From Escherichia phage vB_EcoP_SU10: a stretch of 64,000 bases of DNA. Every line of letters begins with the position of its first letter. Position 1 is the first letter of the stretch. Made by a program: the position numbers and the translations under genes. Shown here piece after piece: positions 55,290 through 57,399 of this stretch. A model generated the notes under the pieces. That model did not search any database, had not been told where the DNA came from, and saw nothing but the letters and a program-made list of their open reading frames with translations. The stretch lies in sequence record NC_027395.1; one strand, given 5' to 3'.

Positions 55290-57320
55290 TTAACCTCTAT
55301 TCAATGAACATTTAGGGGAATTACAATAAACTTGATTCATAGAACCAAGCGTACAACTTTCAGCATCGCGCCACGGAATCTGCTTAAAACACTCTGAGCA
55401 GTAGCCGAGGGTTGACCACATGGCTTTGGTGAAGTCAGTGCTTCGGTTTCCGTCGAAGCTGACAACAGTTTTGCGGAGAGTTGTTCGTGATTCAGGAAAC
55501 ACACCTGCTTTCTCAGCAGGTTCCTCCTTTTTTGGCTTAGTTGAGATTGCAAAAATACTGTTGCTACGTTTCTCAACATAAGCATCAACAACATCCTCCA
55601 GAGTGATGCCTGTCTGTTTCGCTGAGGAAGGTAATACAGTCATACGACCGATCATATCTTCAGTTACACGTAAAGCAAATTCAGGACGACGGGCGTTTGT
55701 TGTATCTGTTGCTTTAATCCAGATATAACCATCTTTGATCGTAGCATTAGATACTTTCTTCTTTACTTCTACAGCGCAGACTTTACAGATATCTTCACCA
55801 CGAAGACGACTGAGTTCCTCATCAAACTCATTCTCTGTTTTAACTTCACCACAGATTTCACAAACACCAATAGGAGTCTCCTCCTCTTCTTCCTCTTTAG
55901 GTTTAGTCAAACCTTCCAGACATTCAGGATGCCAGTAGCACTGATATGCGAAGACTGCTTTAGGTGCATCCTTCCAATCAATGTGCTTATCACAACCACC
56001 ACAATCGCCATGAGAGTGTGCTTCCCAGAATTTACGAGTGATAGTAACACCATTCTTGTTGACGAAACTATCATTCATATCAAAAGGGATATCATCATCA
56101 AAGTCAGCAGTAGTAGACTCAGGCTCCTTTTTCTCCAGAGATGGGTCAACAAAACGACCTGCTGTGATCACTAAGCGAACCATAGCATTAACTTCGGAGA
56201 TGCAGGATACTGTCCCACGGTAAACAATTTTAGGGTCTTTCAGGGCATCCTGATAAGCCTTAATGTCTACGTTATGAACATCACCTTCGATATACTCTTG
56301 AGACTTCTCATCGTAGATATAACCAATCATCTTACCACGAGAAGGAACAGCACCAGCAGTTGCATAAGGAACAAACTCATGCGGAGTGATTTCCACAGTC
56401 ATATCTCGGCGAATGTCAATGTTTCGATCGCTTGCGATTTTGTTTTGACTTACCACTGCGTTTCTTCGACGAACGTCTGCCGCTGTCACTCCCGGCTTCG
56501 TGTCGTAAGGATTGCTTGTATTGCTTTTTGAGGAACTTTGATAGTTGCTTTGGCTGTAGTTGTTCGAGTAATAACTGCCCCAACGATTGGCTACCGTAAA
56601 AACCGGAAGCTCGTGGGCGACCTCTTCAACCAGAGTCATGCTGTTGTTTGACATATCAAAGATATATTCTGTACCAACTTTACATTCAAAATGCTCATCA
56701 ATACGGTTCTTGTGAGATCTAGAACGCTTCAGAATCCACATCAACATGTCTTCTTCAGAAGCACCAAACCAATCTCTGTTACAACGTGCGAGGTGGAATG
56801 GACGCTCTTCGTTACGGATGATATGAAGACGGTTATCAGAAGCATCATGCCAGATTAAGGTGAAAGCACCATCCAGCTTTTGAATAGTCTCTGCTGCACC
56901 AATAGTGTTAATAGAGTGGCAGATGTTCTCACTGTCTACCTCGAAGTTTTTGCTGTCAGGTAACAGATCTTGGTCCATCAAGGTTCCATTATGAACCAGA
57001 GTGATGTTACCATGTTGGAAAGGATGGGCGTTCTTGGCGTTAACTGCACCTTTCGTTGCATGACGACTGTGACCAACAATCCATGAAGGTGCTACAGTGT
57101 AAGCTGTTTCACCAGTGGTGTGCTTCTTGTACTCATCTTGTAGGATGAATGCGAAAGAAGGAAGAGCTTCTTTATAAGTGAAGACTTCCTTAGTACTTTT
57201 ACGCTGACCAAAGATACCGGAGGAATGTTGTCCTCGGAATACTCCAGCATAAAAGAGTTGGTTAAATACGTCTAAATCAGTGCTTGACAGATTACCGCCA
57301 GCTAATACGATGCCACAAAT
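55290..57320 (-). CDS. class-II (Ntn) glutamine amidotransferase fused to a C-terminal region with three CxxC...CxxC modules (676 aa); apparent ATT start
   Basis: Hand translation upstream of ORF-track start 56981 gives (I)CGIVLAGGNLSS...VFRGQHSSGIF...GHSRHATKG...NAHPF...LVHNGTL, the Ntn GATase signature with Cys directly after the initiator. An in-frame TAG lies 2 codons upstream, and an AGGTGG SD lies 8 nt before the ATT. Confidence 0.75.
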   Translation of the reverse strand: MCGIVLAGGNLSSTDLDVFNQLFYAGVFRGQHSSGIFGQRKSTKEVFTYKEALPSFAFILQDEYKKHTTGETAYTVAPSWIVGHSRHATKGAVNAKNAHPFQHGNITLVHNGTLMDQDLLPDSKNFEVDSENICHSINTIGAAETIQKLDGAFTLIWHDASDNRLHIIRNEERPFHLARCNRDWFGASEEDMLMWILKRSRSHKNRIDEHFECKVGTEYIFDMSNNSMTLVEEVAHELPVFTVANRWGSYYSNNYSQSNYQSSSKSNTSNPYDTKPGVTAADVRRRNAVVSQNKIASDRNIDIRRDMTVEITPHEFVPYATAGAVPSRGKMIGYIYDEKSQEYIEGDVHNVDIKAYQDALKDPKIVYRGTVSCISEVNAMVRLVITAGRFVDPSLEKKEPESTTADFDDDIPFDMNDSFVNKNGVTITRKFWEAHSHGDCGGCDKHIDWKDAPKAVFAYQCYWHPECLEGLTKPKEEEEEETPIGVCEICGEVKTENEFDEELSRLRGEDICKVCAVEVKKKVSNATIKDGYIWIKATDTTNARRPEFALRVTEDMIGRMTVLPSSAKQTGITLEDVVDAYVEKRSNSIFAISTKPKKEEPAEKAGVFPESRTTLRKTVVSFDGNRSTDFTKAMWSTLGYCSECFKQIPWRDAESCTLGSMNQVYCNSPKCSLNRG

Positions 57321-57399
57321 TTTCTAATCCACCTGAAGGGTAAACCCTTTCATCTAATTAACCTTTAAATTGTGCCCCTTTGTCAGAGGCACCCATTGA

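Follow-up and report, generated by a model that had tools for sequence, protein, structure and literature searches.

Initiation of translation at AUU is a known kind of phenomenon. In Escherichia coli reporter assays AUU supports initiation at ~1–2% of the level of AUG, and no natural non-canonical starts other than those of infC and pcnB have been confirmed in this species (bioRxiv 10.1101/063800). infC carries a conserved AUU behind a Shine-Dalgarno (SD) motif; it encodes initiation factor IF3 itself, which discriminates against this class of codon, creating an autoregulatory loop. pcnB encodes poly(A) polymerase I, which is harmful in excess, and its AUU holds the enzyme level down. The case described here is a gene for a predicted class-II (Ntn) glutamine amidotransferase on the minus strand of Escherichia phage vB_EcoP_SU10 (NC_027395.1; the 64,000-nt stretch analysed is termed the window), in which an ATT codon directly precedes the codon for the catalytic Cys.

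The window is from a phiEco32-like coliphage (Kuravirus, Gordonclarkvirinae), and the 2.3 kb surrounding the start of this gene are 98–99% identical to phages CHD5UKE1, FH3 and phiEco32 and matched by 96 phage records. phi32_83 of phiEco32 is the same gene (98% identity over the 2.3-kb region, identical leader and start, no distinguishing feature). In the phiEco32 record (EU330206, 2008; RefSeq NC_010324) it is annotated as ‘glutamine amidotransferase’, a 2031-nt coding sequence (CDS) beginning at ATT, the only non-canonical start among 128 CDS (112 ATG, 13 GTG, 2 TTG, 1 ATT). The ATT start of this gene is already known, having been in GenBank since 2008, and the records of phage LAMP and BASEL phage Bas93 also begin the CDS at ATT. 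In the window the minus strand reads CAGGTGGATTAGAAAATTTGTGGCATCGTATTAGCTGGCGGT around the start, with the following features:

55290–57320, minus strand: full-length amidotransferase gene (2031 nt, 676 codons), orthologue of phiEco32 phi32_83.
57318–57320, minus strand: ATT, putative initiation codon, aligned with the ATG of orthologues and invariant in close relatives.
57315–57317, minus strand: TGT, codon of the catalytic N-terminal Cys (Cys1 once the enzyme is mature), placed by alignment with PurF; the column is invariant in an alignment of 12 orthologues (A1).
57329–57334, minus strand: AGGTGG, SD sequence, invariant in Gordonclarkvirinae and AGGCGG in Aeromonas phage BUCT695.
57324–57326, minus strand: in-frame TAG two codons 5′ of the ATT, which closes the frame upstream and doubles as the stop of a mini-ORF (short open reading frame).

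Read along the minus strand, the TAG (57326–57324) is followed by AAA (57323–57321), ATT (57320–57318) and TGT (57317–57315), then by GGC ATC GTA TTA GCT GGC GGT, giving the translation CGIVLAGG. The SD (57334–57329) is separated from the ATT by an 8-nt spacer, ATTAGAAA. From the TAG onward there is no ATG, GTG or TTG in codons 1–113 of this frame, the first canonical in-frame starts being TTG at 56981 (codon 114) and ATG at 56978 (codon 115), and the ATT is the sole near-cognate codon between the TAG and Cys1. The frame is open for 676 codons from the ATT, with its stop at 55290–55292. Initiation at the TTG would drop Cys1, the conserved Arg (HSRHATKG) and Asn-Gly (VHNGT), and would split the match to Pfam GATase_6 (residues 75–175). 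The first-pass annotation, which had placed the SD 8 nt 5′ of the ATT, found no conventional start before the Cys, taken TTG 56981 as the next one and noted that its use would delete the catalytic N-terminal half, was correct on each of these points, as it was in its coordinates and in the CGIVLAGG translation.

The predicted protein consists of an N-terminal class-II glutamine amidotransferase domain of ~250 aa and a C-terminal region of ~420 aa, a putative acceptor domain for which no Pfam match was found. The N-terminal domain matches GATase_6 (55 bits; cut-off 27) and GATase_7 (27.4 bits; cut-off 25) over residues 75–192, and codon 114 falls inside this domain. A search of the PDB with the single sequence gave no match; the family profile built from A1 matched PurF, GlmS and AsnB (E-values 1e-7 to 1e-4). 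Residues 1–120 of this profile align with residues 1–111 of mature E. coli PurF (chain 1ecb), and in E. coli PurF chains 1ecb and 6czf the counterpart of the window Cys is residue 1. In PHROGs 4736, 18128 and 14519 the Cys is at position 2, directly after Met, and residue 1 of the window protein falls on position 2 of the PHROG 4736 profile (E = 2e-201). C1, R85 (GHxRxAT), N110-G111 (HNG) and D128 (DSE) are invariant across the 12 orthologues, and the R85, HNG and DSE motifs align with their equivalents in plant PurF and GlmS; the catalytic roles of the Arg, Asn-Gly and Asp are those established for PurF and GlmS. By homology, the Cys at 57317–57315 is the N-terminal nucleophile, in agreement with the Ntn signature recognised in the first-pass annotation, and glutaminase/amide-transfer activity is predicted.

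The further argument that an enzyme of this class needs Cys as residue 1 after removal of the initiator is valid for this gene, barring read-through of the TAG, but not as a universal rule. Propeptide-bearing class-II amidotransferases exist: in B. subtilis PurF and the large subunit of glutamate synthase, which belong to the same superfamily and likewise need a free N-terminal Cys, Cys1 is freed by autocatalytic removal of an extension. Here the frame does not run upstream of the Cys to a start: with a TAG two codons upstream there is no space for a propeptide, and it would be loss of the initiator Met that exposes Cys1.

Comparison of the window with three diverged Gordonclarkvirinae lineages (82–85% aa identity in the domain) gave pN of 0.13–0.16, pS of 0.70–0.77 and dN/dS of 0.065–0.07 for codons 2–114, and the dN/dS of codons 115–246 is equal. 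Codons 2–114 are translated, since their dN/dS of ~0.07, with saturated synonymous sites, is that of the downstream part. No stop codon has accrued within the 113 codons in ~100 genomes. A 60-nt query running from the leader through the ATT into the first two codons has matches in 95 independent phage records, each 100% identical where aligned (92–100% of the query, with the ATT always covered), and in two Aeromonas phage records at 91.5% identity, in one of which, BUCT695, the ATT was confirmed by reading the sequence. A metagenome scan in which the third base of the start codon was left free recovered six contigs with the identical string, all six with T. In distant orthologues the arrangement at the aligned codon is SD-N7-9-ATG-TGT (Privateervirus, Crifsvirus A24, Salmonella 7-11-like phages, Aeromonas LAh_9, LUZ24-like Pseudomonas phages, Vibrio phages, Arthrobacter phages and IMG/VR contigs), and across other lineages this codon is ATG, GTG or ATC.

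The single T-to-G change that would restore ATG was never seen in the 95 phage records and six metagenome contigs despite saturation of synonymous sites, and for this reason selection seems to act to keep the ATT. Sequencing error can be rejected, as the identical sequence is found in all of these independent records and contigs, and a pseudogene or a downstream start is excluded by the purifying selection, the fixation of the ATT and the ATG at the aligned codon of distant orthologues. Conservation among orthologues and exclusion of an error were the checks that the first-pass annotation had left to be done; with the homology of the Cys, they support its central claim that the gene can begin only at the ATT directly before the catalytic codon.

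The ATT at 57320–57318 is thus very probably the genuine translation start of the amidotransferase gene: no canonical start is usable, an SD lies at a functional distance, and the ATT is conserved in close relatives or replaced by other starts elsewhere. The AGGTGG would position the 30S subunit, fMet-tRNA would pair with AUU as a near-cognate codon with a third-base mismatch, and deformylase and methionine aminopeptidase would then strip the fMet to expose the Cys1 nucleophile. AUU being a poor start that IF3 discriminates against, translation would be expected to proceed at a low or conditionally variable rate, and in one cistron only. This cistron sits within an early amidoligase/ATP-grasp cluster. 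The gene upstream matches Amidoligase_2, and among the neighbouring genes there are also matches to COOH-NH2_lig (‘phage phiEco32-like’) and, weakly, to an ATP-grasp fold (Dala_Dala_lig_C, 16.6 bits; cut-off 24), the gene with the latter match being annotated in phiEco32 as an ATP-grasp enzyme; by these matches the neighbourhood is the known phiEco32-type ligase cluster.

The likeness to infC lies in a conserved AUU and SD, in the host translation system and in a codon of the class discriminated against by IF3, but the phage enzyme has no comparable feedback logic. By analogy with infC, IF3-type control might act on the amidotransferase, at most as a single cistron and not on the ligase operon as the first-pass annotation had suggested. 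pcnB offers the closest functional analogy, AUU possibly keeping a free glutaminase scarce, although toxicity is hypothetical here; other bacteria differ in their pcnB start (AUG, GUG, UUG; bioRxiv 10.1101/063800), whereas the phage ATT is fixed in its clade. Enterococcus faecalis ebpA (PMC4447247) reportedly has an ATT predicted from sequence where the annotation had a downstream ATG, with the rare codon attenuating expression; in that case a Gram-positive chromosomal pilus gene is concerned and the ATT was experimentally confirmed, whereas the phage ATT is read from sequence.

The ATT is at the 3′ end of an unusually conserved leader:

57313–57368, minus strand: 56-nt invariant block (leader, ATT, TGT and GG, ending at codon 3), identical in four divergent Gordonclarkvirinae lineages (alignment A3).
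57324–57353, minus strand: mini-ORF ATG AAA GGG TTT ACC CTT CAG GTG GAT TAG (MKGFTLQVD*), from frame analysis; its translation is hypothetical.
57334–57352, minus strand: small hairpin UGAA(A)GGG-UUUA-CCCUUCA, present in minimum-free-energy and centroid folds.

This block, which contains TTTAAAGGTTAATTAG, the mini-ORF, the small hairpin and the SD, exceeds every other invariant run in the 1.8 kb compared, of which the longest has 20 nt. Synonymous sites in the adjacent gene are saturated, yet the ATT and leader have not changed, which suggests that the ATT is selected rather than accidental; the leader probably has a role beyond that of providing an SD. The mini-ORF (nine codons) is in frame with the gene, contains the SD for the ATT, is preceded by AAGG 8 nt 5′ of its ATG and ends 3 nt before the ATT, so that an upstream ORF terminates within a few nt of a potential restart codon. 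The hairpin lies directly 5′ of the SD, overlapping its first base, and pairs the UG of the mini-ORF AUG. RNA structure in the leader is unexceptional (z of +0.25 to −0.8 alone, and −2.0 only when a hairpin further upstream is included), no Rfam family comes near threshold for the leader, and no repeat of it was found elsewhere in the window. An SD-sequestering hairpin (GGUUUACC/GGUGGAUU) seen in a 131-nt fold found no support, as both substitutions in BUCT695 break it without compensation and shorter folds favour AAGGG/CCCUU. Frameshift entry into the gene was discarded: neither of the other frames has an upstream start codon, slippage on an AAATTTG heptamer would lead to a dead-end frame, and an Rfam match to an astrovirus frameshift element is noise (16 bits against a threshold of 70).

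The same leader, including TAG AAA ATT TGT, is present in Aeromonas phage BUCT695 (NC_070977, locus L019, 2497–2569; Grimontviridae, Libingvirus). It differs in the SD (AGGCGG), in the hairpin, where the only change is in the loop (UUUA to UUAA), in a promoter-like AATGTA at the 5′ end and in the mini-ORF, which is MKGLTLQAD* and still in frame. The BUCT695 and window proteins share 33% identity overall and 52–53% in the N-domain. In a neighbour-joining tree of N-domains BUCT695 falls among ATG-type phages, being 68% identical to A24, and the Kuravirus clade is sister to ATG-type IMG/VR contigs. Because BUCT695 and Kuravirus each group with ATG-type sequences, the combination of ATT and leader is polyphyletic, and this distribution suggests that it has been either horizontally transferred or repeatedly replaced.

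Near-cognate starts recur in the wider family. A scan of IMG/VR with the family profile gave 44 loci, in which the codon before Cys1 is ATG at 33, ATT at eight (five Kuravirus-type, L037, L038 and L049), ATC at one (L065), GTG at one (L053) and unresolved at one (L064). Klebsiella phage Klyazma (OP125547, L071) has ATC (at 201) in the arrangement GGAGGA-N7-ATC-TGT with no canonical alternative. There are therefore five further independent ATT/ATC lineages, L037 (Cys codon at 338), L038, L049, L065 (Cys codon at 401) and Klyazma, each with a GGAG-type SD 6–8 nt upstream and no usable canonical start, and with the Kuravirus clade and BUCT695 the total is seven, ~1/7 of the lineages sampled. All lead into intact frames and, the window–BUCT695 pair excepted, they are ≤42% identical to each other. 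L049 is ~96% identical to the ATG-bearing L046–48 past the start codon and unrelated upstream (alignment A2), where an HNH endonuclease gene has been inserted whose stop ends 1 nt before the ATT. In Klyazma (ATC) and UFV-P2 (L076), too, an HNH gene separates the amidoligase gene from the start of the amidotransferase, and BUCT695 has an HNH-like remnant (L019, 2305–2395). A strict link between an HNH gene and a non-ATG start was rejected, as UFV-P2 combines an HNH gene with ATG. The excess of near-cognate starts may in part be an effect of visibility, Cys1 pinning the start to one codon here and cases in other genes having been annotated away.

Several observations sit uneasily with simple initiation at the ATT. 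The invariance of the leader goes well beyond the needs of an SD and a start codon. ATTTGTG (57314–57320, minus strand) holds three overlapping potential starts in three frames, and the two that are canonical, an out-of-frame TTG (57318–57316; +2 frame, 10-nt spacer) leading to an 8-codon peptide and an out-of-frame GTG (57316–57314; +1 frame) leading to a 4-codon peptide, may compete with the ATT for the same SD. In SU10 the protein was detected with nine peptides (23.7% coverage; PMC4281155), and the gene is therefore expressed. Its peptide count equalled that of the neighbouring ATP-grasp enzyme, although AUU is usually a very inefficient start; initiation is either raised by the leader or supplemented by another route to the protein. 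Nor do these data bear on the N-terminus, as the protein is listed at 63.8 kDa (PMC4281155, Table 2), which is the truncated TTG model, making the proteomics blind to N-terminal peptides. The supplements of that paper contain no peptide list. The full-length model (~76 kDa, 676 aa) includes EALPSFAFILQDEYK and GAVNAK within residues 2–113, and a start at the ATT predicts the N-terminal peptide CGIVLAGGNLSSTDLDVFNQLFYAGVFR.

Another route could be provided by the mini-ORF, which may couple translation of the amidotransferase by reinitiation. If the ATT (57320–57318) were reached mainly by ribosomes that translate from ATG 57353, terminate at TAG 57324 and are held by the internal SD, expression would depend on translation of the mini-ORF and not on binding of free 30S subunits. 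The position and frame of the mini-ORF fit such a mechanism, which would also help to explain the ready detection of the protein; the mini-ORF is retained in BUCT695 despite two substitutions, and in the independent ATT lineage L049 the TAA of the upstream HNH gene ends 1 nt before the ATT. Against this, the predicted hairpin pairs part of the mini-ORF ATG, the SD of the mini-ORF is weak, and no stop codon lies within a few nt of the start in L037, L038, L065 or Klyazma. Conservation of the mini-ORF is uninformative because the whole leader is invariant. Furthermore, TAGATGAAAGG is also present in phage A24, with AAAGGA 7 nt before the ATG of the A24 gene and apparently acting as its SD, and the ATG of the Kuravirus mini-ORF may therefore be incidental. 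We consider reinitiation as the main route possible but unlikely, direct entry at the ATT being preferred, with some ribosomes that end the mini-ORF perhaps re-initiating there.

A broader proposal, offered tentatively and with more doubt than conviction, is that ATT, SD, hairpin and mini-ORF constitute a dedicated 56-nt control module, kept base for base by selection and passed from one phage lineage to another, unrelated one (E. coli Gordonclarkvirinae and Aeromonas Libingvirus), and that AUU/AUC has been repeatedly favoured in phage Ntn-amidotransferase genes. The reason could be that a free glutaminase is kept scarce, or homing-endonuclease traffic at a conserved ATG-TGT-GGN-AT site.

In a related but doubtful scenario, the ATT and leader are mainly the product of horizontal spread, perhaps in the wake of homing endonucleases, and the near-cognate start would be either a side effect that is tolerated or a change conferring immunity. 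The BUCT695 leader, 91.5% identical and with the ATT, precedes a protein that is only 33% identical overall and nests among those of ATG-type phages; HNH genes lie directly 5′ of the start in L049, Klyazma and UFV-P2, with the remnant in BUCT695; and L049 departs from its HNH-free ATG sister contigs exactly at the start codon. However, UFV-P2 retains ATG next to its HNH gene, the Kuravirus leader shows no trace of an HNH gene, and the invariant block of Gordonclarkvirinae ends sharply at codon 3, where a co-conversion tract should enter the gene. The failure to observe T-to-G reversion also argues that the ATT is selected.

Read-through of the UAG from the mini-ORF ATG is very improbable. It would give MKGFTLQVD-X-KI-Cys..., a 12-residue propeptide removed autocatalytically as in B. 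subtilis PurF, chains of which are among the PDB matches, and the mini-ORF and gene do share a frame, split only by TAG AAA ATT. But no tRNA, and hence no suppressor tRNA, was found in the window, and phiEco32 encodes only tRNA-Arg; ATG-type orthologues have no propeptide, with Met-Cys directly; a well-placed SD lies 8 nt before the ATT; other ATT/ATC lineages show no consistent in-frame upstream ORF; and both BUCT695 substitutions in the mini-ORF are non-synonymous. Finally, the idea that the annotated short ORF (from TTG 56981 or ATG 56978) is real and encodes a non-catalytic protein, the upstream half being an untranslated relic, follows the truncated model of most GenBank records and the SU10 paper, produced by gene finders that disallow ATT, and is effectively refuted by a dN/dS of ~0.07 in codons 2–114 as downstream, by the invariance of all catalytic residues, by the position of the TTG inside the Pfam domain and by 113 stop-free codons in ~100 genomes.

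Such truncated models arise because gene callers refuse ATT as a start. In the annotated records sampled, a feature covers the ATT in only ~1/7; the EK010 and E20-1 records put the gene start at ATG codon 11, and in the BUCT695 record the CDS begins at an internal ATG and lacks Cys1. The mis-annotation is systematic, the sampled phiEco32-like records (e.g. EK010, E20-1, SU10, CHD5UKE1), BUCT695 and Klyazma mostly using an internal ATG or TTG.

As a single fact the ATT start matters little, AUU initiation being known and this instance public since 2008. For annotation, most sampled phiEco32-like genomes and the SU10 proteome table describe the protein without its catalytic half. The gene also offers a natural system for the study of near-cognate initiation, in which Cys1 pins the start, the ATT is held through saturating divergence and ATG and ATT versions of nearly identical genes exist in nature (L046–48 and L049). 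If the recurrent ATT/ATC and the invariant leader reflect selection, phages would be setting enzyme dosage within an operon by choice of start codon. To our knowledge, the invariant leader with its mini-ORF, its occurrence in an Aeromonas phage and the recurrence of ATT/ATC in this enzyme family have not been noted before, and the residual interest of these findings is moderate.

One further element was identified between the amidoligase gene and the invariant block:

57372–57392, minus strand: GC-rich hairpin, terminator-like or a stabiliser, identified by folding, just past the amidoligase stop (TAA 57402–57400).

Its stem is kept by compensatory changes (GTGCCTC/GGGGCAC vs GCGCTC/GGGCGC) with a loop of variable length (A3), and there is no clear T-tract. 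In record MK373770 a ‘terminator’ is annotated somewhere within the 2.3-kb match. The consensus of the phiEco32 gp36 promoter is tAATGTAtA, and gene 83 is not among the promoters mapped (PMC8948821). Relatives at loci L005–L008, L014–L016 and L019 carry TTTAAATGTAAA, with an AATGTA core, just 5′ of the amidotransferase SD, and at the same place Kuravirus has TTTAAAGGTTAA (window 57356–57368), with AAGGTT instead of AATGTA. The site in the relatives may be an ancestral middle promoter that was lost or altered in Kuravirus. On the plus strand, a sigma-70-like promoter match (57284–57311; TTGACA-16-TACGAT, 10/12) lies opposite the initial codons of the gene, in antisense orientation, and is directed into the leader; it is probably due to chance, the −35 hexamer (compared by eye) not being kept in E20-1. 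The C-terminal region of the protein (55293–56549, minus strand) contains repeated Cys-rich motifs (CGGCDKHIDWKDA, CEICGEV...CKVCA and CSECFKQIPWRDA) that recur in BUCT695, and is probably a zinc-binding acceptor or targeting region.

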